From: Escherichia phage vB-EcoP-XT73
DNA length: 64,000 bases
Sequence record: OR757436.1
Reading direction: 5' to 3' (one strand)
The position numbers and the translations under genes were made by a program. The notes under the pieces were generated by a model, which saw nothing but the letters and a program-made list of their open reading frames with translations, did no database searches and was not told the DNA's origin. This document shows positions 1 through 51,982 of this stretch, one piece after another. Position 1 is the stretch's first letter. Every line of letters begins with the position of its first letter.

Positions 1-828
1 ATGACCTTCGGTATTCGATGGGGGGAGGTGGTAGCAATCGGTGGTGGTGTAGGTAGTGGTAAAACACTAATTGCTCACGAACTGGTTGCTCATCTGTGCT
101 TAGAGCATGGTTTTAATGGGGGTGGCTTCTTCTTGGAAGAGAAGGTAGGCATGTCTGTTAAGAACATCGCTGGTAAGTCAGCATCAATTCCTTTCCACCG
201 ACCTGATGTTGAATATGACGAGGAAGATTTGCGTAATGAAGCACTTCGTTATGCAGACAAATTCTTCTTGTATGACAACTTTGGGCAGAACGAATGGGAA
301 GACATTAAACAGTGTATCCGTTTCTGGGTAGTTGAAAACCAGTGTAAGTTCATCATTCTTGATAACATTACCGCTCTGGTATCTCATTTAACACCTTCAG
401 AGATTAACACTGAAATCAGTAAGATTGCTTCCGAGCTTGCTGGTATGTGTAAAGAATTAGACTTTACCGCTTTCGTGCTATCTCACCTTAATGCTCCGGC
501 AGGTGGTGCTCCTCACGAAGAAGGTGGACAGGTACGTGAAGTACAGTTCACTGGCTCTCGTTCTCTTATGCGTTGGTGTCAGTGTATCATTGGCTTTGAG
601 CGTGATAAGCAAGCTGACGGCTTAGCTAAGAACCTCTCAGTCATTCGATTATTGAAAGAACGTAACTACGGTCAGACTGGTGTCTGTTATACTAAGTATA
701 TCAGTGAAACCGGTAGACTTGTAGAAAGGGAAGACTTTGAAGTTGATGAAGATAATCCATTCGTTTTAACTAACGGAGAGGGTGCAGCTTCTCTCGTCAA
801 CCAAGCAGATGGAGCTTCACCGTGGTAA
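1..828 (+). CDS. DnaB-like replicative helicase, C-terminal domain (T7 gp4-like); 5' end lies outside the window
   Basis: Walker A-like GGGVGSGKT and a C-terminal stretch [32 protein letters not shown]...FERDKQ that aligns by eye with the T7 gp4 helicase region (LVICHLKNP...AHEEGRPVSITDLRGSGAL...ERNQQ). Confidence 0.8.
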
Positions 829-1376
829 AGAAAAAGAAAGTGTTTGCATTTGATATCGAAAGTAATGCACTATACGATGACATAACTAAAGTATGGTGTA
901 TTTACATTTTCGATGTTGAAACTGGTGAAAGGTGGGGCTACCGGCCTCACCAAATTGAAGATGGGATTCGTAAACTTACAGAAGCAGATGTACTAGTAGG
1001 TCATAATATTATTGACTTCGACTTACCTGCTCTGAAAAAGATATATCCCTCTTTGATTAAATATAATTTTAACGTCTTTGACACTCTGTGTCTTAGTCGA
1101 TATCTTAAACCTGACCGTATTGGTGACAGTCCTGAGTATCCGAAAGGTGACCCTAGACATGGCCCAAGAGGTCATGGTTTGAAGCAATGGGGTGAGTTCT
1201 TAGAGGAACTTAAAGGAGACTACGGTGAGCAAGAGGAAGCATGGGATGCTTTCACTGAAGATATGTTTACTTATTGTGAACAGGACGTTAACTTAACAGT
1301 TAAGGTTTATAAATACTTGTGTGAACTCACAGGATTTGACCCTTACGACCCACCTTCATTATATTGGAAAATGTAA
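822..1376 (+). CDS. DNA polymerase fragment 1: 3'-5' exonuclease domain (T7 gp5-like N-terminus)
   Basis: [48 protein letters not shown] and YCEQDVNLT match the T7 gp5 exo motifs (DIEANAL, HNGHKYDVPAL, DTLVLSRL, HALEAWGYRLGEMKGEY, YNVQDV). GTG start overlaps the helicase stop. The ORF stops at the exo/pol boundary. Confidence 0.85.
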
Positions 1377-1377
1377 A

Positions 1378-2739
1378 ATGATTGTTATCCCGATTAACCG
1401 AATTGAAGATAAGGTTGCTCAACAACCTGATATCACTGTCGGTCGTCACTTCATTGAACAGCTGATTAACAACAACTTGATTCCAGATGGTATCTGTCCC
1501 ATCATTACTGGTGGGGCTGTTCGTGACGCTGTTCTTAATAACATAGCACCTCATGACATCGATATCTTTATTGTCAGAGGACAGACACCAAGAACTCAAA
1601 ACACTTTCATCCGTCATGAACAGTGGCAAGCTCTTGGGCGTGAGATTGAAAGCAATGTGAAAGAGTGGCTAGAGTCACAAGATATTGAGTATTCATCTCT
1701 TCTTGCTGAAACTACAGATGAACCATATACAGGAACTTCCCAATTAACATTCACTGATATCATTGAATTTCAGTGGCAGGGAACTCGAATCCAATTCATG
1801 TTTAATTATCCCACTTCTATCGAAGAGGTATTGGATAATTTTCCTATGATGTGTCGTGGTGCGATGACCCTTGAAAACCTATTCATGACTCCTCATGGAT
1901 ATTTGGCTATGACCGCTCCCTGTCCAGTGGTTGTTTCTAGTCGTGAAATCAGATATGTTCACAAGAAGTGGCCTAATTCTCAGGTATTAAGATTCTCATC
2001 TCCAGCAGTTGCACATCAATACATGGCCCAAACTCGATACCTTCCCACACCTCAGCCGGTTAGTCATCTGGTCAACGAACGGGGTCAGGTTGCTCTTATT
2101 GAGGATACAACAAGTGCTCAGTATTGTGTTGACCGAGATATGAGTCTATTCTTTGGTATACCTTATGAAGAGATTCAGTTAATGTCGAGTCTTAACGGCT
2201 CTGGTCGGGTTCATGCGTATTGGTCTGAAGGGTTGACAAACTTAACAACTAATACAAGAGGAGATCTCCTTGGTCGGGAAGAGGAACCTAATCGGAACAA
2301 TGTAATTGAAGGGGTGTTTGTAGCCCCTGCAATGCGCCGAGCACAAGAGTCACGAAATCTAAGCTCTACTCGTAGAACATCTTTTGAAGAAACTCTTGGT
2401 GTTACTAGCGATTCATTTGAGCGGTGGTTGTCTAGACGTTCTAATGGTCAATCAAATGGTTTGACTGTTAGCCGTCACCAGTTCTCTGGTCAGAGTTTAG
2501 CTGTTGGTAATAGCAACGCACCTGTTATGGCTGTGTGGACCGATGAAGGTGTGGCCCAAGATGTGGTAAGTAGTCTTGATGTCCCTTCTCATGGTGAATT
2601 AGCTGAGACCGTCAGCCGCAATCTCGCTGATCGGTTTGTTGCTAACAACCCTGAAGTATTAGAGCCTCAAACCCGTACAGTTCGGTTTGCCGATGAAGCG
2701 GGTCGTGGATTTTCTTTTGACATGGAAACAAATAACTAA
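1378..2739 (+). CDS. Pol-beta-superfamily nucleotidyltransferase-domain protein (CCA-adding/poly(A)-polymerase-like head motif) with a low-complexity S/T/R-rich C-terminus
   Basis: Motif PIITGGAVRDAVLNNIAPHDIDIFIV resembles the GGAVRD...DxD signature of class II tRNA nucleotidyltransferases. ATG sits 1 nt after the exo-fragment stop (ATGTAAAATG), suggesting translational coupling. Confidence 0.5.
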   Translation: MIVIPINRIEDKVAQQPDITVGRHFIEQLINNNLIPDGICPIITGGAVRDAVLNNIAPHDIDIFIVRGQTPRTQNTFIRHEQWQALGREIESNVKEWLESQDIEYSSLLAETTDEPYTGTSQLTFTDIIEFQWQGTRIQFMFNYPTSIEEVLDNFPMMCRGAMTLENLFMTPHGYLAMTAPCPVVVSSREIRYVHKKWPNSQVLRFSSPAVAHQYMAQTRYLPTPQPVSHLVNERGQVALIEDTTSAQYCVDRDMSLFFGIPYEEIQLMSSLNGSGRVHAYWSEGLTNLTTNTRGDLLGREEEPNRNNVIEGVFVAPAMRRAQESRNLSSTRRTSFEETLGVTSDSFERWLSRRSNGQSNGLTVSRHQFSGQSLAVGNSNAPVMAVWTDEGVAQDVVSSLDVPSHGELAETVSRNLADRFVANNPEVLEPQTRTVRFADEAGRGFSFDMETNN

Positions 2740-2748
2740 GGAATAAAA

Positions 2749-3282
2749 ATGAGTTTACTAGGAAGTGTTGAACTACACGATGTAATTGATAATGGCTATC
2801 TGGATGCGGAGCATAAGTATGTTAACGCTGCTAGTGTGGATATCCGTATTGGTGATACTATCCTTGTTGAAGAACAGGCTGATGGCATCGTTGATATTGA
2901 TGCGAAAGAAAATCTTCAGTGGAAGGAAGTAAAAATCCCTGAAGAGGGCTTGGTTATCACTCCGGGTCAGTTCTTCTTGGCTCACTCTATGGAGGAGTTT
3001 AACCTTCCAGATAACATCTCAAGCCTGTTTGTTCTGCGTTCGTCTATGGCTCGTTGTGGTTTGAACCACCTTCACGCCGGATGGGCAGATGCAGGATTTA
3101 ACAGCAGTAAGCTGACATTTGAGTTCCATAACGTAACCAAGCATCATAGCTTACGAGTTCGTGCTGGTATGCGTGTTGGTCAGATGGTGATGTTTGAGCA
3201 CTCTCATGCAGGGGAACATTCCTATGCAGTGAAGGGTCGTTATAATAACTCTGAAGGTGTAGTTGCATCTAAAGGTGTGTAA
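2749..3282 (+). CDS. dcd: dCTP deaminase / dUTPase-superfamily protein
   Basis: 177 aa with SVDIRIGD, VITPGQFFLAHSMEEF and RSSMARCGL, typical of dCTP deaminases. Confidence 0.75.
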   Translation: MSLLGSVELHDVIDNGYLDAEHKYVNAASVDIRIGDTILVEEQADGIVDIDAKENLQWKEVKIPEEGLVITPGQFFLAHSMEEFNLPDNISSLFVLRSSMARCGLNHLHAGWADAGFNSSKLTFEFHNVTKHHSLRVRAGMRVGQMVMFEHSHAGEHSYAVKGRYNNSEGVVASKGV

Positions 3283-3489
3283 ATGACTGAAGAAGAGTTC
3301 CAAGAACTGAAAGGTTTGACTACCGAGGTTCAATTAAAAGCTATTACTTTTGGTCGAGCATGTCATCAATTTGATATATGCGTCGAAAGCAGTAAAGAAG
3401 CTTGTAAGAGCTATATGGATAAGAAGCACCTTGAATGGGGTAAAGCCTCTAACGATCTTTATAACTATATGAAGGGTTTAGTAAAATGA
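3283..3489 (+). CDS. hypothetical protein
   Basis: 68-aa ORF tightly packed between neighbours. Confidence 0.4.
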   Translation: MTEEEFQELKGLTTEVQLKAITFGRACHQFDICVESSKEACKSYMDKKHLEWGKASNDLYNYMKGLVK

Positions 3490-3683
3490 AAAAGTGGATT
3501 GTTCGTGTACATGATGATACGACTGGAGACTTGGTAGCTGTAGATTTTATTAACACTCGAGAACACGCCCGTAGGGTCAAAAACCAATACAAGTCTACTT
3601 TTAGACTCAATAAGGTTACAATAGGAAAAGCTATTGTGAATAACGAAGGTGCTCTTTTTGCCAACAGCAAGGTTTATTATTAA
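3486..3683 (+). CDS. small protein, paralogue family A
   Basis: Shares W-I/V-R-V ... F-T-R-x-x-A-R-x-x-K ... K-V-x-Y-Y pattern with the ORFs at 3683, 3892, 6442 and 13529. Confidence 0.5.
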   Translation: MKKWIVRVHDDTTGDLVAVDFINTREHARRVKNQYKSTFRLNKVTIGKAIVNNEGALFANSKVYY

Positions 3684-3892
3684 TGAGACCAATCACTATG
3701 AGACAGTTTTGGTTAGCAAAGATTAAGTGGGCATCAGGTGGTATGACTATGACTGCACTTCCTACTCGTCAACAGGCTCGAGATTTTAAAAAGACTATGC
3801 TTACTGGTGACGTGGTCAATAGTATCAGTATCCATAAGGCCAAGGAGTATTCTTCTGGTCGTGTTTATATCAGCGGAAAGGTACATTACTAA
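3683..3892 (+). CDS. small protein, paralogue family A
   Basis: Tandem paralogue; start overlaps the upstream stop. Confidence 0.5.
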   Translation: MRPITMRQFWLAKIKWASGGMTMTALPTRQQARDFKKTMLTGDVVNSISIHKAKEYSSGRVYISGKVHY

Positions 3893-4101
3893 TGAAAAAG
3901 ATGTGGGCGATTCGTGTTGTTTGGGATCTTGATCAACACACGAGAAAAGATAGCATCAAATTGTTTGACACTCGCAAAGAGGCTCGTATTGCTAAGAAAC
4001 AGTTGAAGACTCTGGGCACAATAGTAAAAAGCGCTGATATACATCGCTGGTACGAAGACCCTAACTCGGGTTCTTTTATGTCTAAAGTAATTTATTACTG
4101 A
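3892..4101 (+). CDS. small protein, paralogue family A
   Basis: MKKMWAIRVVWD...FDTRKEARIAKKQLK...KVIYY; third tandem copy. Confidence 0.5.
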   Translation: MKKMWAIRVVWDLDQHTRKDSIKLFDTRKEARIAKKQLKTLGTIVKSADIHRWYEDPNSGSFMSKVIYY

Positions 4102-4125
4102 TTGGTAGTAGATATGGTAACTCTC

Positions 4126-4134
4126 AAATGTATA
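4126..4134 (+). promoter_or_regulatory. AATGTATA promoter-like motif upstream of the 4174 gene
   Basis: aAATGTATAtagag about 40 bp upstream of the ATG; same core as the motifs near 9156 and 15352. Confidence 0.4.
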
Positions 4135-4173
4135 TAGAGTACAATAAGAATTTGTATTTTACAGGAGAGAGTT

Positions 4174-4500
4174 ATGTTAGATTTGAGTAAAGTGGCCCCG
4201 CCCACTGAAGAGATTACAAAATCCAAGGTGATGCAACAGTTTTATCATCGTGATATGCTTGGTCGCTTTATCAAGAATCGTGATGTTGTTGCTTGGTCTA
4301 TTGGTAATCAGGGATATCTGTTGAAGGTTCTTCAGGTTACAGGTTCAACTGCTAAGCGAGTTAAGGTGTATGACCCTGAAATGGGGCGTTCTAAGTCAGT
4401 AGACCCGCAGAACTGCATCGTAATTACCCAGCAGGTGATAGCAAATCTAGAAAGAAATGTAGCAAACTCTACTGAGTTAGAAGGAGAAGACCCTAAGTGA
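4174..4500 (+). CDS. hypothetical protein
   Basis: 108-aa ORF with AGGAGAGAG RBS upstream. Confidence 0.5.
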   Translation: MLDLSKVAPPTEEITKSKVMQQFYHRDMLGRFIKNRDVVAWSIGNQGYLLKVLQVTGSTAKRVKVYDPEMGRSKSVDPQNCIVITQQVIANLERNVANSTELEGEDPK

Positions 4501-4990
4501 TTCCAAAGGAATTGGAAGGGAAGATTGATGTAACAGAGGATGGTAGAGTATTTACTATAAAAAGTGGAAGGTTTTAACCCTCCACACTAATGGTGCCTAT
4601 TACAGAGTTACTATTTACTTTCCTGAAGGATTAAAGAATTTCTATGTCCACAGGCTGGTTGCTAGTAAGTACATACCGAACCCTGATAATCTTCCATGTG
4701 TCAACCATAAGGATGGCAATAAACTTAACAATCATAAAGATAATCTTGAATGGTGTACCCACCGAGAAAACTCTCAACATGCATCATCATTAGGTCTGAT
4801 GGTACAGAGGTTTGGAGAAGACAATCCGCAGTCTAAACTTACTCTAGAAGATGTAGAGTACTGTAGGAGAGTTTATATCCCTCGAGATAAAGAGTTTGGA
4901 GGCTCTGCCCTTGCAAGACGTTTTGGTGTCTCTCAGCAAGTGATATCAAAAGTTCTACTTAATCAAACTTGGAGGGAATATAATGCATAA
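4497..4990 (+). pseudogene. HNH homing endonuclease, interrupted by a frameshift at an A5 run (about 4559-4563)
   Basis: Frame 3 from GTG 4497 gives MIPKELEGKIDVTEDGRVFTIKSGRF then stops; the -1 frame continues YYRVTIYFPEGLKNFYVHRLVASKYIPNPDNLPCVNHKDGNKLNNHKDNLEWCTHRENSQHA to 4990. No in-frame start precedes the HNH core. Confidence 0.5.
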
Positions 4991-5546
4991 GAATGTTTTT
5001 GATTTACCTGAGATTGGTCGTGCCGAATATAATATGTTAGACCGATCAGAGCTTTCAATCTCTCGCCTTGAAACAATGCAGGGTATGATTAGTGGAAACA
5101 GCCTAGAACACATCCTGAGCTGCTTACAAGCTAACATAGAACTCTTGCATATCAAAGCTAAAAACTACCATTGGAACGTCTCTGGTGCAGGATTTCAGGG
5201 TGTTCATGGTATGTTTGATGAGCTGGAAGATTACGCACGACAAGTAGGAGATCGTATTGCTGAACGTATGCGTTACCACTGTGTTAAAGTGGACGCCACA
5301 GCAGCCAATTATCTCTCCCATGCTTGGTTCTCAGAGGGTAATGCTGACCTAGATATGGACGGTATGCTCTCTGATATGTGCATGACCTTGATGTGTATTA
5401 TTGAGAAGATGGATGAGTTTGATGGTGATTTAGCCACTTATCCAGTTGATCAGAGTATGCTTCAAGAAATTAATGAAGGTCTTGGCAAGTATTGCTACTT
5501 CGTCAAGAGCAACATGTCCCACTCAAGTGGCGATGTGTCTTACTAA
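4983..5546 (+). CDS. dps: Dps-like ferritin-family protein
   Basis: LHIKAKNYHWNVSGAGFQGVHGMFDELEDYARQVGDRIAERM aligns with the E. coli Dps ferroxidase region ([25 protein letters not shown]...DTMAERA), including the His/Asp/Glu positions. Confidence 0.7.
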   Translation: MHKNVFDLPEIGRAEYNMLDRSELSISRLETMQGMISGNSLEHILSCLQANIELLHIKAKNYHWNVSGAGFQGVHGMFDELEDYARQVGDRIAERMRYHCVKVDATAANYLSHAWFSEGNADLDMDGMLSDMCMTLMCIIEKMDEFDGDLATYPVDQSMLQEINEGLGKYCYFVKSNMSHSSGDVSY

Positions 5547-5608
5547 AAACCTCCGCCCTGTCTCCTAACCCGAGGTGGGGCGAACTTATTTATAAGGATA
5601 TAGATATA

Positions 5609-5787
5609 TGTTATCAGCAATCGTATGGGGTATTTGGGCTGTCTTTATTGGTGGTGGTATCTATTGGGCTTCTGGCAAGCTTATTGAAGAAACTCCTGAC
5701 AAGAAAGGTGAGATTCAAACAGCATCAACCATCATGGTTGTCGTAGCTGTTGTTATCCCATTCCTGCTTCACCTCCTGACTGCATAA
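5609..5787 (+). CDS. small two-segment membrane protein
   Basis: 59 aa (MLSAIVWGIWAVFIGGGIYWASGK...VVVAVVIPFLLHLL) with two hydrophobic segments; below the ORF-track length cutoff. Confidence 0.35.
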
Positions 5788-5796
5788 GGGTTTGAT

Positions 5797-5982
5797 ATGA
5801 TTTCACTGATTGTGTGGGCCGTGTGGTCGTTAATAGTTGGTACTGTTATATATAAAGCTCGAAATTTAGCAATTAAAGAAAACCCAGCAGAAGAGGATGT
5901 TAAAGCTATCAAGCTAGGCAGTGTTGTTCTGGTACATTTTGCTATAACACTACCTCTTGTTATTATTCTTTGTATGCTATAA
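5797..5982 (+). CDS. small two-segment membrane protein, paralogue of 5609
   Basis: MISLIVWAVWSLIVGTVIYKA...LVHFAITLPLVIILCML; same hydrophobic pattern as the upstream ORF. Confidence 0.4.
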   Translation: MISLIVWAVWSLIVGTVIYKARNLAIKENPAEEDVKAIKLGSVVLVHFAITLPLVIILCML

Positions 5983-6172
5983 GGAAACCAAAGAGTGAAA
6001 CTAAACCTACCTGAAGAATTACAAGCACATGCCATTATCGTTAGTGGCTGTGTGATGGGTCTTGGTCAAACAAAGAAGATTGCTCATGACTTAGCAAAAG
6101 GTCAGTATAAATCTTTTATTGTTGTTCCTGCTACCCAACGTCATATCAACCTGTTTATTAACAAGGAATAGA

Positions 6173-6445
6173 ATGTCTAAAGTGATTAAGTTTTATAGCG
6201 ATCAGTGTGCTCCATGTAAAGCAATGGCTCCTACCTTTGAGAAGGTTGTTAAGGAGTTCGATGTAGAAGTAGAAGAGATTAACATCCTTGAAGGTGATGG
6301 TCGTGAACAAGCTGTTAAGTATGGTGTAAGAAGCATCCCTGCTTTCGTTGTACCTGACCGTAATAGTGGTGCACACTATAGTCTCTCTGGTATGCAGACC
6401 GAAGCAAACCTGAAAGCATTCTTAACTACTGCCCTAGGTGTTTGA
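6173..6445 (+). CDS. thioredoxin
   Basis: FYSDQCAPCKAMAPTFEKV...KYGVRSIPAFVV aligns with the thioredoxin CxxC active site and the KYGIRGIPT strand. Start chosen at the internal ATG preceded by AAGGAA. Confidence 0.7.
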   Translation: MSKVIKFYSDQCAPCKAMAPTFEKVVKEFDVEVEEINILEGDGREQAVKYGVRSIPAFVVPDRNSGAHYSLSGMQTEANLKAFLTTALGV

Positions 6446-6651
6446 TTATGAAAAAATATTGGACGGTGGTATATTACCTCTACCAAGACCCGGCTATACC
6501 TGTTACAGAGCACTTTGCTACTCGTAAAGATGCTCGCCGTTTTAAGAAGGCTCTTAAGATGGCCCCAAAGATTTATAGTAAAGTAAGCTTACATAAATCA
6601 ACATTGTCAGAGATGGGAACCTTAGTGGTTTATTATGTAAAAGAATATTAA
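6442..6651 (+). CDS. small protein, paralogue family A
   Basis: MIMKKYWTVVYY...FATRKDARRFKKALK...LVVYY. Confidence 0.45.
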   Translation: MIMKKYWTVVYYLYQDPAIPVTEHFATRKDARRFKKALKMAPKIYSKVSLHKSTLSEMGTLVVYYVKEY

Positions 6652-6666
6652 TAAGGAAATTCACGG

Positions 6667-7323
6667 ATGAATGAACAATTACAAGCAACATTAATCGAAG
6701 CTATGGGAAGTGATCGTAGCGTAGTAAACGCAGCTCGAGTTTCCTTTGGCGTAACCCGTGAAGGTGATTTAAATGAACGTGATGAACGTCTCATCAACTT
6801 CCTCGCAAGAGAGAAGCATGTTACTCCATTCCGACACCCACAAGTCAGTTTCCGATGCAAAGCACCTATCGCAATTGCGAGACAGTTGGGCAAGCATCAG
6901 GTTGGATTCTCGTGGAACGAAATGTCCCGGCGGTATAAAGATGGAGCAGTTGAAGTCTTCATCCCTAAAGAGATTTTTGCGAGACCTTCGGACCTCCATG
7001 CAGGTTCAGGGGTTCAACTCATCGATGGAGAACGAGCTGAAGCATTAATGTTGATTAACGATGCATACGAAGCTTCTCTAGCAGCATATGACAAGTTGAT
7101 TGAATTCGTTGCACCAGAACAAGCCCGATTTGTTCTTCCTCAGGGAATGATCACTGAGTGGGTGTGGACTGGTTCTTTGTATGGCTGGTTTGAGTTGTGT
7201 CGTCAGCGACTATCCTCCCATGCTCAGTATGAAGTTCGAGTGTTTGCTCAATCTCTGGATGAAGAGATGGCTAAACTCTACCCAATCTCGTGGGCAGCTC
7301 TGAAGAAAACTTTGGAGAGTTAA
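6667..7323 (+). CDS. thyX: flavin-dependent thymidylate synthase (ThyX)-like
   Basis: 218 aa with HVTPFRHPQVSF and SWNEMSRRY segments resembling ThyX RHR and S-x-R-Y motifs; sits in the nucleotide-metabolism cluster. Confidence 0.55.
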   Translation: MNEQLQATLIEAMGSDRSVVNAARVSFGVTREGDLNERDERLINFLAREKHVTPFRHPQVSFRCKAPIAIARQLGKHQVGFSWNEMSRRYKDGAVEVFIPKEIFARPSDLHAGSGVQLIDGERAEALMLINDAYEASLAAYDKLIEFVAPEQARFVLPQGMITEWVWTGSLYGWFELCRQRLSSHAQYEVRVFAQSLDEEMAKLYPISWAALKKTLES

Positions 7324-7508
7324 TGACACATAAAGTGTGTAGCTTCTGTAAGAAAGAGAAGACTATCATCAACTTCAAACCTAATCCTGTAACTGGTCTG
7401 TCTCATGTTATGTGTCACTCTTGTAGGATATATCTTGAAACAAAGCACACCATTAACAGGTTGCATTATTATCACCCAACAACATTCAAATTTAAGGTTG
7501 TTAAATGA
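7323..7508 (+). CDS. small Cys-rich (zinc-ribbon-like) protein
   Basis: MTHKVCSFCKKEK...MCHSCRIY; start taken at the internal ATG after GGAGAG. Confidence 0.4.
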   Translation: MTHKVCSFCKKEKTIINFKPNPVTGLSHVMCHSCRIYLETKHTINRLHYYHPTTFKFKVVK

Positions 7509-7708
7509 AAACATTATGGACTCTTGACTGTCAAGATGATGACGGAGAGCGTTGGACTTGGAAATATTTCCTAGGGAAACCAACACCCGAGAACCCTGCT
7601 TTGGATTGTGCTTCATATGAAGATGCTAAGAAGCTGGTAAATGGAGAAAAGGTTTGGTCTCCGGATAATGAAGTTCAGTACTTTTTAACAGAACGGAAAT
7701 TTTCATAA
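7505..7708 (+). CDS. hypothetical protein
   Basis: 67-aa ORF, overlapping start/stop with neighbours. Confidence 0.4.
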   Translation: MKTLWTLDCQDDDGERWTWKYFLGKPTPENPALDCASYEDAKKLVNGEKVWSPDNEVQYFLTERKFS

Positions 7709-8031
7709 TGATTGACGGTAATACATTTAGGACTTCAAATGGAAGTGAAATAAGTCCCGCTGAAGTGATTAATCGGCACAGAAGGCAATTGATCATCCAT
7801 TCCTATTTGTATTACTGGTTGGATGACCCTATCTGGTCTGATGATAAATGGCAACAAGTTGCTAACGATTTGGTTGAGTTGCAAGCCTTGTATCCAGAGC
7901 CTACCGGAGTCTTTGACAATGAGTTCAAAGATTGGGATGGTTCTACAGGGATGCATCTCCCACATAACGAAGCTGTTGCTTGTATGGCGACAGCTGTTTA
8001 CAGACTTCATAAAGAGGTTAACTTCGCATGA
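7708..8031 (+). CDS. hypothetical protein
   Basis: 107-aa ORF. Confidence 0.45.
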   Translation: MIDGNTFRTSNGSEISPAEVINRHRRQLIIHSYLYYWLDDPIWSDDKWQQVANDLVELQALYPEPTGVFDNEFKDWDGSTGMHLPHNEAVACMATAVYRLHKEVNFA

Positions 8032-8228
8032 GCGTAGTTTATGTTCTAGAAAGATATGCTGAAGATCACAACAGTATTGTTGCCATATTTAAATATGCCC
8101 CAGATGTTGAGGATATTTTGAATGTGACTCACTTAACTGATGTTGATAAAATCAAAGACCTCATCAGGAATGACAATGCCCACATAGGTGACTCTCTGTG
8201 GTCTCTTACCGAATGGACATTGTGGTGA
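8028..8228 (+). CDS. hypothetical protein
   Basis: 66-aa ORF. Confidence 0.35.
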   Translation: MSVVYVLERYAEDHNSIVAIFKYAPDVEDILNVTHLTDVDKIKDLIRNDNAHIGDSLWSLTEWTLW

Positions 8229-8410
8229 AGTGCTCTAGATGTGAAGGGACAAACCTTCATTTAAGTAACAAGGTTATCAGAGAGCTTGCCAAAGGCTCTC
8301 CAACCAAAGGGAAGAACAAACGATTTACTAACGTCAGGGTTTATACAGCAATCTGTAAAGATTGTTTAACTACTGAATGTCATTACGAAGAAATTGGAGA
8401 GCGTAAATGA
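8198..8410 (+). CDS. small Cys-rich protein
   Basis: KCSRCEG ... CKDCLTTECH; the true start may be the internal Met (MDIVVK). Confidence 0.35.
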   Translation: MVSYRMDIVVKCSRCEGTNLHLSNKVIRELAKGSPTKGKNKRFTNVRVYTAICKDCLTTECHYEEIGERK

Positions 8411-9144
8411 GTCGTCGTCAATCACGGAAAGAATCACGGAAAGACCTTCGTCGGGAAGCACTTGTCACTCGTAAGGGTAAGCGCGAGTTTGAAGAGGTGG
8501 TTTTAGCAAAGCCTGTAGTCCCTCAGAACCAGTTCCAGTCTGAACTGCTCAATGCTATCAAGACTAAACAAGTTGTGTTCACAGACGCTCCTGCGGGCTG
8601 CGGGAAGACCTTTGTAATCACTTCCACAGTTATTGATGCACTGAAGAGTGGTAAGATTCAGAAGATCATTCTGAGTCGCCCTTCTGTTGGCATGGGTAAC
8701 TCACTTGGGTTGCTTCCGGGAGGAATGCGTGAGAAATTTGAACCATATCTGATGCCAATCATTGATGTTATTACTCAGAGATATGGTAAGGGGTTCTATG
8801 AATGCCAGCTCGGTAATAGTAACATTGAGTTTGTACCTCTGGAGTATCTCCGTGGTCGTTCTTTCAATGATGCTATCGTTATCGTTGATGAGTTCCAGAA
8901 CACCACTAAAGATGAAGCCTTCTCAATCATGACTCGATTGGGAGAAACCTCTCAGCTGTTCTGCATGGGTGATACAAACCAGCATGATATGCGTGGTCGT
9001 GAGAGTGGTCTTACTTGGGCTACTAACTTTATTGATGAACATGATCTGTATGAGTTCGCTGAGATTGTAGACGGCGAATCAGATGACATTGTTCGTTCTG
9101 GTTTCTGTAAAGCTATTGTTAAAGCAATGGAAAAGAAAGCTTAA
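8407..9144 (+). CDS. phoH: PhoH-like ATPase
   Basis: Walker A APAGCGKT and Walker B-like IVIVDEFQN in the PhoH arrangement. Confidence 0.85.
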   Translation: MSRRQSRKESRKDLRREALVTRKGKREFEEVVLAKPVVPQNQFQSELLNAIKTKQVVFTDAPAGCGKTFVITSTVIDALKSGKIQKIILSRPSVGMGNSLGLLPGGMREKFEPYLMPIIDVITQRYGKGFYECQLGNSNIEFVPLEYLRGRSFNDAIVIVDEFQNTTKDEAFSIMTRLGETSQLFCMGDTNQHDMRGRESGLTWATNFIDEHDLYEFAEIVDGESDDIVRSGFCKAIVKAMEKKA

Positions 9145-9155
9145 ACAGTAACTTA

Positions 9156-9164
9156 TAATGTATA
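9156..9164 (+). promoter_or_regulatory. TAATGTATA promoter-like motif
   Basis: acttaTAATGTATAct about 40 bp upstream of the 9201 start; shared with 15352. Confidence 0.45.
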
Positions 9165-9200
9165 CTCCTTAGTGTACACTGATATATTAAGGAGTTTTAA

Positions 9201-9524
9201 ATGGCAGACCATGTAGGAAAGAGAGATTATGCACAAGAAAGACGTACCGCCATCGCAAGGGGTGAAACGGGAATTGGTAGCAAGAGCGGAGATGCTCAGC
9301 GCCACCGTGCACGTCGCATCGTTGAAAAGCGCGATGGAAAAGCTGCTGTCAGAGGTAAAGACGTTGGACACAAGCGAGCCATCAAGTCAGGAGGCTCTAA
9401 TGCGTCAAGCAACTTACGTGTTGAAACAGTCAGCGGAAATCGTTCAGCTGGCGGCAAAAGTGGAGATCGAGCTGGGAAGGCAGCTGGCGCTGCTAAGCGA
9501 AAAGGAGCTTTAAGCTCCTCGTAA
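9201..9524 (+). CDS. basic, Gly/Arg/Lys-rich low-complexity protein
   Basis: AAGGAG sits 7 nt upstream of ATG 9201. An alternative overlapping frame (9229..9513) encodes a helical-looking 94-aa product; the sequence alone does not decide between them. Confidence 0.35.
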   Translation: MADHVGKRDYAQERRTAIARGETGIGSKSGDAQRHRARRIVEKRDGKAAVRGKDVGHKRAIKSGGSNASSNLRVETVSGNRSAGGKSGDRAGKAAGAAKRKGALSSS

Positions 9525-9532
9525 TATGAGGC

Positions 9533-9565
9533 TACCCAAATGGGTGGCCTTTTCTTTTATATAAA
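9533..9565 (+). terminator. rho-independent terminator
   Basis: ggctacccaaatgggtggcc hairpin followed by ttttcttttat. Confidence 0.6.
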
Positions 9566-9592
9566 CCGAATTAAACTTCTTAGGTAATAACT

Positions 9593-9841
9593 ATGTCTAT
9601 TGTAAAAACTGTAACTATTATTGATGTAATGACTGTCCGTCTGGTTAAGTGGAAATTCACCAACAATCATGGCATTGCTAATCTCATTGCAAACCAGATT
9701 GGTCATAACCCAAAAACAGCTCGTACTAACGTAATCCTCCGTGGTGCTGATGGGAAGTTCATTTCTTATAAGAATAAAGATGTAGAGAAAGAATTCCGTG
9801 TTGCAGTAGAAAACCTCATCCCATTCCCTAAAGGAGTTTAA
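9593..9841 (+). CDS. small protein, paralogue pair B
   Basis: ...HNPKTARTNVILRGADGKFISYKNK...LIPFPKGV; paralogous to the next ORF. Confidence 0.5.
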   Translation: MSIVKTVTIIDVMTVRLVKWKFTNNHGIANLIANQIGHNPKTARTNVILRGADGKFISYKNKDVEKEFRVAVENLIPFPKGV

Positions 9842-9842
9842 T

Positions 9843-10118
9843 ATGAATAAATTAGCTATGGTTCAGATTCGAGACATATACCCTAACCATCCGGAGAAAA
9901 CTTGGTCTTATCTGTTGACTGAAAGCAAGACTATTGACACATATCTTGCAGGGGTTGACACTATCCCAACCAGTATCACATTGCTCCCTCACAAAACAGC
10001 CAGAACCCATGTGATGTTACGTGACAGCAAAGGTAAGTTTATCTCTTATCGAGATGCTCGAATCAATAGCGAAATTAAATCTGCTATGGAATCTTTAACG
10101 CCATTCCCAAAAGGTTGA
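9843..10118 (+). CDS. small protein, paralogue pair B
   Basis: ...HKTARTHVMLRDSKGKFISYRDA...LTPFPKG. Confidence 0.5.
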   Translation: MNKLAMVQIRDIYPNHPEKTWSYLLTESKTIDTYLAGVDTIPTSITLLPHKTARTHVMLRDSKGKFISYRDARINSEIKSAMESLTPFPKG

Positions 10119-10281
10119 GTGATGAAAGAATATATTTACGTAGGAAAGCGCTGGGTCGGTGATGAATGGGAAGGTGGATACAGCGTTGTGAAAGCTTTTA
10201 AGTCTGAAGAAGATGCTAAGGCGTGGGTCTTAAAAGATGACGTTGGTGAGAGAACTTACATTGAAGTAGAGGTGGAGTAGA

Positions 10282-10698
10282 ATGCCATTACCAGCTAGAC
10301 ATCAAAACAGATTCCTAGTTCTCAAGTGGGATGATATCGAAATGAATCTCACTGAACACGAACTTGATTTGTTCCATGAACTGTTGTCAGAGATTCGCTC
10401 TGGTATCCCTGATCGTCAGTATGTAGTTATCAGTGATAAGCACCCTCAAGAGTTTGAAGAAGTTTGGGGTATGAAGTTAGCTTATATCCAGAGAGCTATT
10501 CGAGAAAGAGAAGAAGTCGCTAACCAAAGGGTTGTGGCCCATTTAGTACGAGAGCAACCTCGTGAAGCTGGGGCTAACCATGCACCACCTCCTCCTCGTA
10601 CAGTTATCAATGGGATGGTTAGGGCTTATAGTGACGAAGCTACCATGTTAGATGTGGTAGAAGATAACCAAGCATTTACAGATTTACTTTACCAATAA
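10282..10698 (+). CDS. hypothetical protein
   Basis: 138-aa ORF immediately upstream of the polymerase-domain gene. Confidence 0.45.
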   Translation: MPLPARHQNRFLVLKWDDIEMNLTEHELDLFHELLSEIRSGIPDRQYVVISDKHPQEFEEVWGMKLAYIQRAIREREEVANQRVVAHLVREQPREAGANHAPPPPRTVINGMVRAYSDEATMLDVVEDNQAFTDLLYQ

Positions 10699-10714
10699 TT
10701 TAAAGGAGTATAAA

Positions 10715-12559
10715 GTGAGCAACCCGGACGCTCTCCCATTTTTGACAGAGATGACTGTCGCTGATATAATCTCTAAGCAAGCGAAGCACGGAGTGAGTTT
10801 CAACCGAAGAAATGCTCGGTGGTATGTTCACCTCCTTAAAGAGATTATTGTTAATATTGACAAAGAACTGATTCCTCTCTTACCTAAGATGCGATTAGAT
10901 GGCTCTACTTACATGAAACCATTTAAGAAGTCTGGAGCTTTACAGAAATGGCCTCAAGCCTATTGTGATAGAGTTGGACTTAAGAGAGAAGACATTGGTG
11001 GAGCATTCACCTGTGTTGAATACGTAGACTTTGACCCATCGAAAGATGCACGAGTTAAAGAAGCCCTTATGGATGAGGGTTTTCTTCCTCCAGAGTTTAA
11101 CGTATCAAAGAAACCTTGGAATACTTTTGAAATCAAGAAAGATATGCGAAAGTATGGAACATACCAAGCATGGTATTCAGCTTGGATGCGAGGTAATGCT
11201 AAACAGAAGCAGACAGCCGAGATGGTTGACGCTGATATTAGGAAGTTCTTAGAAAAGCATTTTAGGTTTAAGACTAAGAACTATATGAAGGCTTATGTAT
11301 TTGGTTTAGGTTTAAATCCTAACCGACGTAGACCTATCACTTTTGACGAGATTAAGATAGCACTAGCTACCTCAAACAAGTGGCCTACAGCTCCTACAAA
11401 CCTCGAGGAGACTCTTGAAGAAGGGTTAGGGGGTGAGTTAGGAAGTGTCGGAAGTTTGCTTAAGAGACGCGTTGTAGCGGCTCACAGGCTAGGTCTTATC
11501 AGTGGACTAATAGCAAAGGAACGCGAAGATGGTAAACTTTCGGCAGAAGCTAACAGCTGCGCTACGCCGACTTTTCGATTCAAACATCGTATCGTGGTTA
11601 ATATTCCCTCCCGTGGTTTGTTTGGTCATGAGTGTCGCAGTTTGTTTGAGTCTGACTATAACTCAGATGATGATCACTCTCGTCCTTTCGTTATTACTAA
11701 CGTTGTTCCTGATGGTTGTTATATACGAAAAGGTACTAACGTAATTTACGAGAAAGGTAAGCCGGGGAAGAAAGATAAGCCTGTAGGTGCTTACAAATAT
11801 TACATACCCGCTGGTAAAGAAGTATTCTTAGGGTATGATGGTTCTGGGTTAGAGTTGCGTATGCTGGTACATTATCTAGTAAAAGAGTGCCTTGATATGA
11901 TGGAGGAGGCTAAACTAGAAAATGACAAAGTTAAATATCTAAGAGCTGAGAAAGGCTTAGAAGCTGCCTATACATACAGAGATGTACTGCTGTCTGGTGA
12001 TATTCATTCCCACAATCAGAAACTCGCTGGGCTTCCAACTCGTGACAATGCAAAAACCTTCATCTATGGATTCCTGTATGGAGCAGGAGCAGCTAAAATT
12101 GGGGAAATAGTTGGAGGGGGTGCTCAAGAAGGTGAAATTCTTAGAGAGCGATTCTTAGCGGAATGTCCTTGTATTCCTATCGTACTGGAGAGAGTTCAGG
12201 CCCGAGCGGAATCAGGCACTTTGGAAGGTGTGGATGGTCGTAAGTTAACTATGAGACGAGATGCTACTGGTAAGGTTATGGTGCATAAAGCACTGAATAC
12301 TCTACTTCAGAGTGCAGGTGCCATTGTCATGAAGTACTCTATTCTGTTTACAAACAAATGGGTAGAGCAGCAGAATATTAGAGGAAACAAAGTGATCGAT
12401 TATCATGATGAAGCACAGTGGTCTGTCAACCGTAACGACGTTGATAAAATGAAGAAGATAGCTGAGACTTGTGTTAAGAAGGCAGGTGAATATCTAAACA
12501 TGCACTGTGAACTAGCTTCTGATTGTAAAATCGGATTGAATTGGATGCAAACTCACTAA
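10715..12559 (+). CDS. DNA polymerase fragment 2: family A polymerase domain (T7 gp5-like)
   Basis: DGSGLELRMLVHY, GDIHSHNQKLAGLPTRDNAKTFIYGFLYGAG, ALNTLLQSAGA and YHDEAQ match T7 gp5 (DASGLELRCLAHF, GDIHTKNQ...PTRDNAKTFIYGFLYGAG, ALNTLLQSAGA, VHDEIQ). GTG start after AAAGGAG. The N-terminus aligns with T7 residues just after the exo domain. Confidence 0.9.
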   Translation: MSNPDALPFLTEMTVADIISKQAKHGVSFNRRNARWYVHLLKEIIVNIDKELIPLLPKMRLDGSTYMKPFKKSGALQKWPQAYCDRVGLKREDIGGAFTCVEYVDFDPSKDARVKEALMDEGFLPPEFNVSKKPWNTFEIKKDMRKYGTYQAWYSAWMRGNAKQKQTAEMVDADIRKFLEKHFRFKTKNYMKAYVFGLGLNPNRRRPITFDEIKIALATSNKWPTAPTNLEETLEEGLGGELGSVGSLLKRRVVAAHRLGLISGLIAKEREDGKLSAEANSCATPTFRFKHRIVVNIPSRGLFGHECRSLFESDYNSDDDHSRPFVITNVVPDGCYIRKGTNVIYEKGKPGKKDKPVGAYKYYIPAGKEVFLGYDGSGLELRMLVHYLVKECLDMMEEAKLENDKVKYLRAEKGLEAAYTYRDVLLSGDIHSHNQKLAGLPTRDNAKTFIYGFLYGAGAAKIGEIVGGGAQEGEILRERFLAECPCIPIVLERVQARAESGTLEGVDGRKLTMRRDATGKVMVHKALNTLLQSAGAIVMKYSILFTNKWVEQQNIRGNKVIDYHDEAQWSVNRNDVDKMKKIAETCVKKAGEYLNMHCELASDCKIGLNWMQTH

Positions 12560-12934
12560 ATTCAGAACTGAAAGATTGGAATACAAATGAACTAGTCTTA
12601 TTGATTAGTTCATAACAAGGAGATTGAAGTGGAAGAGATGCCATCGGATTGGTGTTATCGTCAGAGCGCCATCTGTAATGAACAAGGACGTCCTGATGAA
12701 GCTGAGTTTTATTTAGAACTCGCTGAACTATGGAAAGAGAGAGAGGAAAAGAATGACTGCAACTGAATTGAAAGAAACCATGTCCACTGAAGAAGGTAAA
12801 GCTTTCTTCCTAACTCAAGTACACTCTATGGGTAAAGATGCCCTTCGCCAAGCAGTCGTTGAGCTTACTGGTGTAGTGATTGACTTGAGTATTGAAAATG
12901 AAACACTTGAAGCTAAAGTAAAAAGTTAAATAAG

Positions 12935-12957
12935 AAGCTGCCTTAGGGCGGCTTTTC
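12935..12957 (+). terminator. possible terminator hairpin
   Basis: agctgccttagggcggctt followed by ttcttg; imperfect stem. Confidence 0.3.
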
Positions 12958-12975
12958 TTGTCTAAAGGATTTGAC

Positions 12976-13368
12976 ATGAATATTGGTTTAGATTACGATG
13001 ATACTTACACCTCAGATAAGAAGCTGTGGCGCTCTGTGGTGGCATTAATGCAAGCCAAAGGTTATGATGTGCGTTTTGTAACTTATCGCTTTGCAGAGCC
13101 TAATGGATATGATAATCACGACATTAAGATTGATGCAGAGTGTTTGCAGATTCCTATCATCTTTTGCAATGGTGTTCAGAAAGATAACGTATGTCGCCAG
13201 TTAGGTTTCTTTGTAGATATCTGGATTGACAACTTCCCTGTTGGAATCCCTAAGAAGGACCACCTAGATGGGATGCTGAAGGGCGTAAGACCTAATGACC
13301 TTAGGGCAGCACCTCCTGTAGAAATAGCCGCTCCTGTGTACTCTGAAGAGCCTCTGGTGATTCGATGA
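12976..13368 (+). CDS. hypothetical protein, possibly HAD-like phosphatase
   Basis: N-terminal IGLDYDDTYT resembles the HAD DxDxT motif; weak. ATG 12976 chosen because the upstream start would lie inside the hairpin. Confidence 0.35.
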   Translation: MNIGLDYDDTYTSDKKLWRSVVALMQAKGYDVRFVTYRFAEPNGYDNHDIKIDAECLQIPIIFCNGVQKDNVCRQLGFFVDIWIDNFPVGIPKKDHLDGMLKGVRPNDLRAAPPVEIAAPVYSEEPLVIR

Positions 13369-13528
13369 AAAAGTATAGTGTATGGTTTAACGAGGTAGAA
13401 GAAGGTTTTGATGAAGTTGGTGGATGGGTTAATATCCTAAACACTGATGATATAGAAGAGGCCGAGAAGTGCGCCCTAAACTATAACTCTGGATATTATG
13501 AAAGAAATTGGGAATACGAGGAAGAAGT

Positions 13529-13750
13529 ATGATTTGGATTCACACTTATAGAATTGGAAAGAAAGGGCTTACTACTGTTCACACATCTGAAGACAGTGCT
13601 AAAGCATCTCAGGCTGTACTGAAAGGAAAGATCACACCTTATGTAGTCGCTGAAGAAAAGAAAAGTCCTCCGGTTCTAGAATATCTAGGAACAGGTAAGG
13701 CTTACACAGCACTGGATGTTATTAACAACAAACAAGGAGATGTGGTGTAA
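13529..13750 (+). CDS. small protein, family A-like
   Basis: MIWIHTYRIGKKGLTTVHTSEDSAKASQAVLKG...; GAGGAAGAAG precedes the ATG. Confidence 0.4.
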   Translation: MIWIHTYRIGKKGLTTVHTSEDSAKASQAVLKGKITPYVVAEEKKSPPVLEYLGTGKAYTALDVINNKQGDVV

Positions 13751-13967
13751 AATGGAATACATTGATAAATACTCAAGTGAAGATTCAAAAGACGCTGAAG
13801 TTTTGTTCGTACTGAAAACAGACTGTTTAGAACATGGACAGCTTATCAACTTTATTGAATTGGCAAAACTTAAAGAAGAAATTGATCAACTATACAGTGA
13901 TGAGCAATCCAGATTACTTTCCTTGTCCCTGCTAGGTGACTTAACCTGTGATGGTTGCATGATATGA
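13740..13967 (+). CDS. hypothetical protein
   Basis: Small ORF; either ATG 13740 or 13752 is a possible start. Confidence 0.35.
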   Translation: MWCKMEYIDKYSSEDSKDAEVLFVLKTDCLEHGQLINFIELAKLKEEIDQLYSDEQSRLLSLSLLGDLTCDGCMI

Positions 13968-14437
13968 TAGAAGATCTTCTGGATGAGTTCTTTGTTTGTG
14001 ATTTATCATCTGGGAAAGTGTTCTGGAGAATTCACAACGGAACAAAATGCAGGCGGGGTGACGAGGCAGGAACTTCAAAAAAGGATGGAAGAGTGCTTAT
14101 TCGATTGAAAGGAAGAGCCATTTACAGATACCACATCATTTGGTATTTTGCTAATGGTGTTTTACCTAAAGATCAAATAGATCACATTGATCGAAACCCT
14201 TCCAACGATTCCATAGGCAACCTTAGAGAAGTTAACAACGAGAATAATTCTTGGAACAAGGGTTTGAACTCTAACAACACATCAGGAGCTAAGGGCGTAT
14301 ACCTCAATTCAAGAGGGAAGTACATAGCCAACATACATATTAGAGGTAAAACTAAATACCTAGGAACTTTCTCAACCCTAGAGGAAGCCGTCTCTGTTAG
14401 AAACAGAGCGGAGGAAGATCATAAATTAACTATCTAA
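13955..14437 (+). CDS. HNH endonuclease with AP2-like DNA-binding domain
   Basis: RYHIIWYFANGVLPKDQIDHIDRNPSNDSIGNLREV (HNH core) followed by GAKGVYLNSRGKYIANIHIRGKTKYLGTFSTLEEA (AP2-like). Confidence 0.7.
   Translation: MHDMIEDLLDEFFVCDLSSGKVFWRIHNGTKCRRGDEAGTSKKDGRVLIRLKGRAIYRYHIIWYFANGVLPKDQIDHIDRNPSNDSIGNLREVNNENNSWNKGLNSNNTSGAKGVYLNSRGKYIANIHIRGKTKYLGTFSTLEEAVSVRNRAEEDHKLTI

Positions 14438-16714: not shown

Positions 16715-16718
<4 letters not shown>
16458..16718 (+). CDS. o-spanin (Rz1-like) candidate, overlapping the 16223 gene
   Basis: MRKLNQFFIMSALVMTTSACSTSDSS looks like a signal peptide with a Cys near the cleavage region. It starts inside the upstream gene in a different frame and extends beyond it. 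The lipobox is atypical. Confidence 0.35.
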
Positions 16719-18091
<1,373 letters not shown>

Positions 18092-18092
18092 T

Positions 18093-18914
18093 ATGGAAGA
18101 CGTTAAGCTCCCTGAAGTAGCTATAGTGGATGCTGACGTTCTTCGATATGAAGTGGGTGCTCTTACTCAGGAGCATCCCTTTCTTGACACAGGACGTGTT
18201 CCAGTTGATTACAATTTCATGATTGAACGACTTCAGTACAAGATAGATACTATCATTGCTCGCTCAGGTTGCAGTAAGGTTGTGTTCTACTTCAGCGAAG
18301 GTGGTAACTTCCGTTTTGATGTTGCTAAGCAGCAAGACTACAAAGCAAATAGACCTCCCGGAGAAAGACCTTTTCACTGGCAAAATGTTGGTGATTACAT
18401 TAAAGGTAAATATGAATACATAGATGTATTTGGGAGAGAGGCTGATGATGCACTAGCTGAAAGGCAACGTAGGGATAAGAACACTATCATCTGTACTAGA
18501 GACAAGGATTTGTTGATAACTCCCGGATGGCACTACCGTTGGGCTTGTGGAGAAAGACAGAAAGAAGTTCCTCCTCACTATGTATCTGATTTAGTTTCGT
18601 GGCAAAACTTCTTCTATCAGATGTTGATTGGAGACGGTACAGATAATATCCCCGGATGTGGAGAACGTAAAGAAGTTATGTGGGGAGGTAAGCTCCAGCT
18701 TCGACGTCAAGGAATAGGGAAGAAAGCAGCAGCTAAGTTGTTGGCTGGTGTTACAGACAAGTGGACCATGTATCATATAGTACGAATGGAATATTATAAG
18801 AAGTTCGATACTGAAGATGAAGAGAAGATGCTTGAGAATGCTCGGCTGCTCTTTGTTGGTCAGACTCCGGAAGACCTATTTGATTGGTCGTGGCTCGAAA
18901 AAACTTGGGAATAA
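18093..18914 (+). CDS. 5'-3' exonuclease / flap endonuclease (FEN family)
   Basis: DADVLRYEV, YKANRPP, GREADDALA, TRDKDLLI and GDGTDNIPGCG in the FEN order. Confidence 0.8.
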   Translation: MEDVKLPEVAIVDADVLRYEVGALTQEHPFLDTGRVPVDYNFMIERLQYKIDTIIARSGCSKVVFYFSEGGNFRFDVAKQQDYKANRPPGERPFHWQNVGDYIKGKYEYIDVFGREADDALAERQRRDKNTIICTRDKDLLITPGWHYRWACGERQKEVPPHYVSDLVSWQNFFYQMLIGDGTDNIPGCGERKEVMWGGKLQLRRQGIGKKAAAKLLAGVTDKWTMYHIVRMEYYKKFDTEDEEKMLENARLLFVGQTPEDLFDWSWLEKTWE

Positions 18915-51954: not shown

Positions 51955-51982
51955 TTGACAACTGGAAAGCCTAACCTATAAT
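51955..51982 (+). promoter_or_regulatory. sigma70-type promoter (consensus -35 and -10)
   Basis: TTGACA, 16-nt spacer, TATAAT, preceded by A-tracts. Confidence 0.6.

Follow-up and report, generated by a model that had tools for sequence, protein, structure and literature searches.

Predicted exonuclease and polymerase subunits of a T7-type DNA polymerase are encoded 9.3 kb apart in Escherichia phage vB-EcoP-XT73

The DNA analyzed here (“the window”) is a 64,000-nucleotide (nt) stretch from Escherichia phage vB-EcoP-XT73 (sequence record OR757436.1). Two open reading frames (ORFs) on its plus strand, designated “exo” and “pol”, encode a predicted 3'-5' exonuclease and a predicted polymerase domain, each resembling the corresponding part of gp5, the DNA polymerase of phage T7. 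Both ORFs had been listed by a first-pass annotation as genes with starts of their own, in agreement with the ORF list and the sequence (see the table for coordinates). The exo ORF begins with GTG at 822, 7 nt downstream of GGAG, and this start overlaps the stop codon of the primase/helicase gene (826-828). The pol ORF begins with GTG at 10715 and has its own AAGGAG 6 nt upstream. From the exo stop to the pol start, the distance is 9,338 bp (9.3 kb). Instead of the canonical architecture, in which exo and pol domains share one polypeptide, the window therefore presents two ORFs, a known “split” sub-type.

Positions 1-13000 of the window were compared with GenBank phages using megablast. The best match was vB-EcoP-XT18 (97.6% identity over 99% of the query), and 99 phage records were matched, nearly all of them Escherichia phages of the genus Kuravirus (phiEco32-like, Gordonclarkvirinae). 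Because 54 independent phage records are collinear over at least 80% of this 13-kb region, the exo/pol layout is a trait of a well-sampled phage genus and not of a single assembly.

The exo ORF matches Pfam DNA_pol_A_exo1 (E 1.7e-9), and its sole sequence matches in the PDB, searched with phmmer, are to T7 gp5 (residues 3-182, E 1e-11). When a profile of 40 homologues was aligned with gp5, exo residues 8-182 fell on gp5 residues 2-198 (99.7% probability, E 5e-26). The ExoI, ExoII and ExoIII motifs of a DEDDy 3'-5' exonuclease domain are all found, here on a separate ORF of 184 amino acids (aa), and residues D11, E13, N62, D67, Y151 and D155 do not vary among 40 stand-alone exo homologues. Relative to phage 172-1, the ratio of nonsynonymous to synonymous substitution rates (dN/dS) for exo is 0.12, and exo is 95-99% identical to the exo of other Kuraviruses.

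The pol ORF matches Pfam DNA_pol_A (E 1e-20). In phmmer searches of the PDB, T7 gp5 was the best match (E 9e-37) and the Klenow fragment gave a far weaker one (1.4e-9); a profile of 44 homologues aligned pol residues 3-614 with gp5 residues 205-704 (100% probability, E 2e-54). An AlphaFold2 model of the subunit (mean pLDDT 90.4) was compared with the PDB using Foldseek, and the top 27 matches were all T7 gp5 (E 2.5e-25, TM about 0.57). In both sequence and fold, pol is thus nearer to gp5 than to Pol I, Pol theta or other PolA subfamilies. Its catalytic residues are invariant in the 44 homologues (motif A, D375/E380; motif B, R443/K447/Y451; motif C, H564-D565-E566). The motif B sequence, RDNAKTFIYGFLYGAG, is that of T7, including the tyrosine at the position of T7 Y526. 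Relative to phage 172-1, dN/dS is 0.03 for codons 1-368 and 0.09 for codons 369-614. Given invariant catalytic residues and dN/dS values of 0.03-0.12, neither the exo half nor the pol half is decaying. Judged by sequence, exo is predicted to be a complete T7-type 3'-5' exonuclease and pol a complete T7-type polymerase domain.

In the gp5 structure described by Doublie et al. in 1998, the exonuclease domain reportedly extends to about residue 187, whereas the polymerase domain starts near residue 202. Taken with the profile mapping to gp5, these domain ends place the break in the inter-domain linker. Relative to gp5, no sequence has been lost or duplicated at the cut. Fused relatives have the same arrangement within one chain: their exo profile ends 0-6 residues ahead of the point at which the pol profile starts. 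The exo and pol products are collinear with these fused proteins. The first-pass annotation had aligned each ORF by eye with its part of gp5, had put the break exactly at the domain boundary and had read the two separate genes as encoding a genuinely two-subunit enzyme; at the level of the genes, this reading is borne out by the linker position and the collinearity, and a physical exo-pol complex is predicted. Alignment of the concatenated products with natural fusions likewise put the cut in the linker and revealed, in the split lineage, an additional short C-terminal tail on exo (consensus GFDPxxPP) and a few additional residues at the N-terminus of pol. Two lineage-specific insertions occur in pol, a helical one at about residues 137-237 and a beta-rich one at about 318-368.

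Separate ORFs might still yield a single polypeptide if the halves were joined after transcription or translation, by a split intein, by trans-splicing introns or by programmed frameshifting. We regard this as very improbable. An intron-like break does exist elsewhere in the pol genes of relatives (in Salmonella phage PKM.Hi.22.6, and as an intron reported for the LUZ24 pol gene; PMC3517423), but homology to gp5 extends over the whole of exo residues 8-182 and pol residues 3-614, which leaves no room for intein halves, and 26 genes with starts of their own stand between the two ORFs. By Pfam, neither ORF contains a Hint/intein domain, exo and pol domains alone being found, and an intein is therefore excluded. 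No Rfam family reached threshold in window positions 1-14000, which together with the 26 intervening genes excludes a spanning intron. The earlier statement that the arrangement is neither an intein nor an intron accordingly holds.

The interruption in PKM.Hi.22.6 is of another kind. There (contig L005, 20446-22901), pol occupies two ORFs, the break falling in motif B near window codon 447; the ORFs are bridged by a sub-threshold match to a group I intron (RF00028, 24.8 bits, E 7e-4). In metagenomes, several Kuravirus-like pol proteins (P0013 and P0015-P0017) also stop at about residue 450. The motif B break in these relatives is an intron-type interruption, unlike the exo/pol split.

To place the split in a wider set, 120 pol homologues were drawn from a collection of 5.8 billion proteins. 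The top ~73, extending down to ~37% identity, all lack an exo domain and start within a few residues of the junction. At ~35% identity and below, homologues are mostly fused exo-pol proteins; above ~35%, no fused homologue was found among the 120. A neighbour-joining tree built from 95 sequences unites the long split polymerases (52 sequences) in one clade, apart from all others, with a bootstrap value of 96/100. Its members are Kuraviruses, 7-11-like Salmonella phages, relatives of Vp_R1 and BUCT695, LUZ24-like Pseudomonas phages (Bruynoghevirus) and many metagenomic contigs. A few shorter sequences lacking exo were placed outside this clade and may represent further fissions or truncated genes.

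Every locus examined has the same order on the same strand: primase/helicase, exo, a variable gap and pol. With exo directly 3' of the primase/helicase gene, this corresponds to the order of genes 4 and 5 in T7. The two marks of the split clade, a pol that starts at the exo/pol linker and an exo that directly follows primase/helicase, are both present in the window. Across the deep clade, exo and pol occur together in every genome examined. The gap, measured from the exo stop to the pol start, is about 1.95 kb in Bruynoghevirus SIIA-P2, 2.5 kb in a LUZ24-like contig (L007), 5.95 kb in Salmonella phage PKM.Hi.22.6, 8.3 kb in a metagenomic contig (L006), 9.0 kb in phage 172-1, 9.3 kb (9,338 bp) in the window and 9.8 kb in phage XT18. 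In L006, whose pol is 45% identical to that of the window, the gap holds DCD, PhoH, Trx, ThyX and ferritin. Among the best 150 metagenome cluster representatives for the T7-type exo, 45 are of stand-alone size (≤235 aa); as contig context is absent and cut fragments may be included, this count is indicative.

The first-pass annotation had allowed for a sequencing or assembly artefact, or for relatives with an intact fused gene that would make the split a recent disruption. Under such an explanation (a sequence error or a fresh mobile insertion), one or both halves would be pseudogenes, and the region does contain mobile HNH genes as well as a real or apparent 1-base frameshift at 4572-4575. 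Against this stand the identical layout in the 54 collinear records and in distant lineages, the restriction of all fused homologues to ~35% identity or less, strong purifying selection, intact catalytic residues and a separate start signal for each half. The same split was present in all relatives examined, and no close relative carried a fused gene. Both an assembly artefact and a recent disruption are refuted by these comparative data, and we give this explanation almost no credence. By the sequence comparisons, the exo/pol split is ancient and fixed, and it predates the divergence of several phage families.

Table. Features of the window, with the basis for each assignment.
Feature	Position	Strand	Basis or remarks
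T7 gp4-like primase/helicase, 3' part, cut by the window edge	1-828	+	Pfam DnaB_C, E 7e-9; DNA primase/helicase in XT18 and 172-1 annotation
Predicted 3'-5' proofreading exonuclease subunit (exo), 184 aa	822-1376	+	Pfam, PDB and profile matches; RefSeq “DNA polymerase exonuclease subunit”
Intervening block, 26 same-strand genes	1378-10698	+	ORF list, Pfam, XT18/172-1 annotation
Nucleotidyltransferase	1378-2739	+	Weak Pfam match to PolyA_pol head domain
dCTP deaminase	2749-3282	+	Pfam, 3.5e-34
HNH, frameshifted	4497-4990	+	Comparison with XT18
Ferritin/Dps-like protein	4983-5546	+	Pfam, 3.5e-7
Thioredoxin, 90 aa, CAPC motif	6173-6445	+	Pfam Thioredoxin, E 2.5e-13
ThyX	6667-7323	+	Pfam, 1.4e-43
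Stand-alone NAD-ligase Ia domain, 107 aa	7708-8031	+	Pfam Nlig-Ia, E 2.7e-35
PhoH	8407-9144	+	Pfam, 4.2e-56
18 small ORFs without assigned function	within 1378-10698	+	ORF list
Shine-Dalgarno sequence AAGGAG for pol	10703-10708	+	Sequence, 6 nt upstream of GTG
Predicted polymerase subunit (pol), 614 aa (thumb, palm, fingers)	10715-12559	+	Pfam, PDB, profile, AlphaFold/Foldseek
Perfect sigma-70 consensus	10742-10770	+	Sequence
Divergent 3' patch of pol, about codons 379-614	11848-12559	+	Nucleotide and amino acid comparison with Kuraviruses
Macro-domain protein	16715-17158		Pfam, E 5e-9
5'-3' exonuclease, separate gene (T7 gp6/FEN-like)	18093-18914	+	Pfam 5_3_exonuc_N, E 6.6e-6, 26.4 bits, under the 34.3-bit cut-off

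The pol gene of the window has a mosaic structure. Over the first ~1,065 nt it is 94-99% identical to phage 172-1, with 99% amino acid identity to the SGF2 type in this part. Beyond it, from motif A up to the stop codon (11780-12559, about codons 369-614), identity to other Kuraviruses drops to 63-72% at the nucleotide level and about 72% at the amino acid level. The recombination junction was placed at 11780-11848, within the stretch coding for the conserved motif A, and the divergent patch is common to XT18 and XT32. Among 175 homologues, none closer than 72-76% was found as a donor. The intron-bearing pol alleles (P0013 and P0015-17) were considered as a source of the patch and ruled out, as their identity to it is 70-73%.

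The pol coding sequence contains, 27 nt from its start, a perfect sigma-70 consensus (TTGACA, a 17-nt spacer and TG-TATAAT; 12/12). The 64-kb window has just one other perfect site, at 51955. The site is identical in 172-1 and XT18 and absent in distant relatives, and its -10 element overlaps the conserved VADII codons. Promoter-like sites as a whole numbered 28, as opposed to 30.4 in shuffled sequences, and are uninformative on any operon structure linking exo and pol; the perfect site in pol is the one that is conspicuous among them.

Between exo and pol lie 26 genes, all on the same strand (counted from the ORF list together with the XT18 and 172-1 annotations), and not about 15 as first estimated. 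The genes that had been named in the interval (nucleotidyltransferase, dCTP deaminase, Dps, thioredoxin, ThyX, PhoH and HNH) are all present, with the qualifications that the HNH gene is frameshifted here and that the nucleotidyltransferase match is weak. The latter gene encodes a 453-aa protein with a match to the PolyA_pol/CCA-adding head domain (E 7e-4) and a long C-terminal half without assignment. In the HNH gene, one T is missing from the T-run at 4572-4575 (a T5 homopolymer), and the reading frame is shifted; the gene is intact in XT18. Either this is a real pseudogene or it is a homopolymer sequencing error. XT18 also has one additional HNH gene, beside thyX. The 107-aa ORF labelled plain “DNA ligase” in deposited genomes corresponds to the NAD+-binding Ia domain of an NAD-dependent DNA ligase alone, without the adenylation and OB domains. 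In the LUZ24-like contig L007 (7469-10008), the exo-pol gap has eight genes, of which four encode HNH_3 endonucleases; another such gene comes immediately after pol. Homing endonucleases appear to use the exo-pol interval as a landing site.

Downstream of pol, the window also contains a Macro-domain protein and a predicted 5'-3' exonuclease. A stand-alone gene for the latter is normal in T7-type replication modules, and a separate 5'-3' exonuclease is listed for this phage group in the YF01 paper (PMC9965538).

We consider it probable that an ancient fission of a T7-type family A polymerase gene produced this arrangement and that the two products reassemble as a gp5-like enzyme. The fission occurred at an exactly mapped position, is conserved and old, and has left both halves under purifying selection. 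The ancestral polymerase gene would have been located directly downstream of primase/helicase, as T7 gene 5 is after gene 4, and would have been cut in place, where a short linker joins the 3'-5' exonuclease domain to the polymerase domain. The exo half, whose start overlaps the stop codon of the helicase gene, would have stayed where it was, and the pol half would have gained its own ribosome-binding site and start codon. The pol half would then have moved downstream as cargo piled up at the new intergenic site, in the form of homing-endonuclease genes, nucleotide-metabolism genes and small ORFs. We infer this order of events (a cut in place, then accumulation of cargo) partly by analogy with the adjacent genes of phage S-SBP1.

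As the most likely mechanism, the 184-aa exo protein would dock non-covalently on the 614-aa pol protein and proofread its primer end in trans, and phage or host thioredoxin may serve as processivity factor. This two-piece version of gp5 is suggested by the strict co-occurrence of the genes, the collinearity of their products with fused enzymes, the intact active sites and the purifying selection. According to Czernecki et al. (PMC10201439), the exo domain is required in family A polymerases for structural stability, and their AlphaFold complex of the split PolA of S-SBP1 superposes on an unsplit enzyme with the interface kept.

Several points weigh against a gp5-like complex. A literature search on the “exonuclease subunit” of such phages returned unrelated genome notes only, and no biochemistry of binding or proofreading was found. 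The divergent 3' patch of pol coexists with an exo that is 95-99% identical to that of other Kuraviruses, which shows that the palm and fingers can be swapped without co-variation of exo and lends no support to a tight, co-evolving complex. Note that this swap is neutral with regard to an interface on the thumb or the N-terminal palm. Two further points concern thioredoxin: the pol segment at the position of the gp5 thioredoxin-binding loop is ~25 aa shorter than in T7, and thioredoxin is not annotated in the LUZ24-like members.

These last two points make thioredoxin the weak part of the proposal. Pol residues ~59-110 align with the thioredoxin-binding region of gp5 (gp5 262-338), the C-terminal part alone being clearly homologous; in the T7-like PolA cluster, a thioredoxin-binding domain in the thumb is not universal. 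The phage thioredoxin encoded in the gap is a candidate processivity partner of pol, a hypothesis that has already been published for phage Privateer. A thioredoxin is also encoded within the exo-pol gap of the distant contig L006.

As the main alternative, exo and pol may no longer cooperate, so that pol replicates without an associated proofreader and the 184-aa DEDDy nuclease has an independent role, for example in degradation of host DNA, in processing of recombination ends or in work with the translationally coupled primase/helicase. Such independence would fit the 9.3-kb distance and separate translation signals, the coupling of exo to the helicase gene and not to pol in every lineage, the exchange of the pol catalytic region with no matching change in exo, and the frequency of stand-alone-sized exo proteins in metagenomes (the 45 of the best 150 representatives noted above, possibly including fragments). 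It is harder to reconcile with the presence of exo and pol together in every genome examined across the deep clade, with products that are exactly collinear with fused enzymes down to their linker-proximal segments, and with the reported requirement for exo in PolA stability and the interface kept in the S-SBP1 model (PMC10201439). On balance, we judge it unlikely that the nuclease acts independently.

An extension of the reassembly model can be offered tentatively, and we hold it to be somewhat doubtful as a whole. It would comprise a single ancient fission independent of the recent frameshift in S-SBP1, a gap that has acted as a hotspot for homing-endonuclease and nucleotide-metabolism genes and grown from ~2 to nearly 10 kb, and compensating features of the enzyme. 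The exo tail GFDPxxPP, the two pol insertions and the gap-encoded phage thioredoxin may be such features, holding together a tunable holoenzyme of three parts. If this were true, the exo:pol ratio, and hence replication fidelity, could be set independently.

The exo/pol split itself is already known, from RefSeq names and at least three papers. In RefSeq, phage 172-1 gp093 is named “DNA polymerase exonuclease subunit” and gp066 “DNA polymerase”, and XT18 is annotated alike. The separation has been stated as common to the whole group (PMC9965538, 2023), and the phage tf paper (PMC3517423, 2012) described it in LUZ24-like phages, citing the 2008 phiEco32 genome paper for the E. coli phage. Split T7-like PolAs were treated as a class by Czernecki et al. 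(PMC10201439, NAR 2023), who studied the adjacent-gene type of S-SBP1; the long-distance case appears not to be included there. As a discovery, the window carries little weight, being about 98% identical to a deposited phage and having a published split. The present contribution is small: it maps the cut exactly, shows that the long-split clade is monophyletic and that exo is anchored to the helicase gene, and documents a graded expansion of the gap. The residual value lies in a natural experiment, a family A replicase with a predicted detached proofreading subunit across several phage families, and the comparative picture provides a clean starting point for biochemistry of the halves, of fidelity and of the role of thioredoxin.

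Among known systems, the closest are the phiEco32-like Kuraviruses (172-1 AVV18_gp093 and gp066; YF01 gp70 and gp49), which have identical genes in identical order and DNA that is 91-98% identical. The window differs from them in the divergent 3' third of pol, which it has in common with XT18 and XT32, and in its frameshifted HNH gene. In the LUZ24-like phages (Bruynoghevirus), “DNA polymerase part I / part II” belong to the same clade, with the same cut point and with exo after the primase gene; pol is 38% identical to that of the window over 99% of its length. Their gap, however, is ~2-2.5 kb and holds small ORFs and HNH genes without the nucleotide-metabolism block, their pol is about 530-545 aa long, and thioredoxin is not annotated in the gap. 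T7 gp5, which works with E. coli thioredoxin, is the top sequence match for both halves and has an identical motif B, RDNAKTFIYGFLYGAG, but it is a single 704-aa chain with a thioredoxin-binding loop ~25 aa longer and without the insertions at ~137-237 and 318-368.

Polymerases in pieces are found in other families. Some T4-related phages reportedly have a replicative family B polymerase, gp43A/gp43B (work of Petrov and Karam), in two split ORFs with mobile-endonuclease DNA between them; the gap there is reported to be shorter, and the cut to lie inside the polymerase and not where exo and pol meet. In the E. coli Pol III core, the alpha polymerase (DnaE) and the epsilon proofreader (DnaQ) are separate polypeptides that act as one enzyme. 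Functionally, Pol III alpha/epsilon and archaeal PolD DP2/DP1 are alike in carrying polymerase and DEDD-type proofreading activities on separate chains, as would the phage enzyme. The polymerase folds of Pol III (family C) and PolD (family D) are unrelated to it, and their association was established biochemically, whereas in the window phage it is predicted. The comparison with PolD has also been drawn for split PolAs (PMC10201439). Among these, the PolA of S-SBP1-like cyanophages is likewise a T7-type enzyme with exo and pol in two genes and a shortened thioredoxin-binding region, but its genes are adjacent and overlapping and arose by a recent +1 frameshift, whereas those of the window are 9.3 kb apart and stem from a fission older than the divergence of several phage families. 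By sequence, the window polymerase can be assigned to the T7-like family A PolAs (cluster #5 of Czernecki et al. 2023), as a member of the split sub-type.

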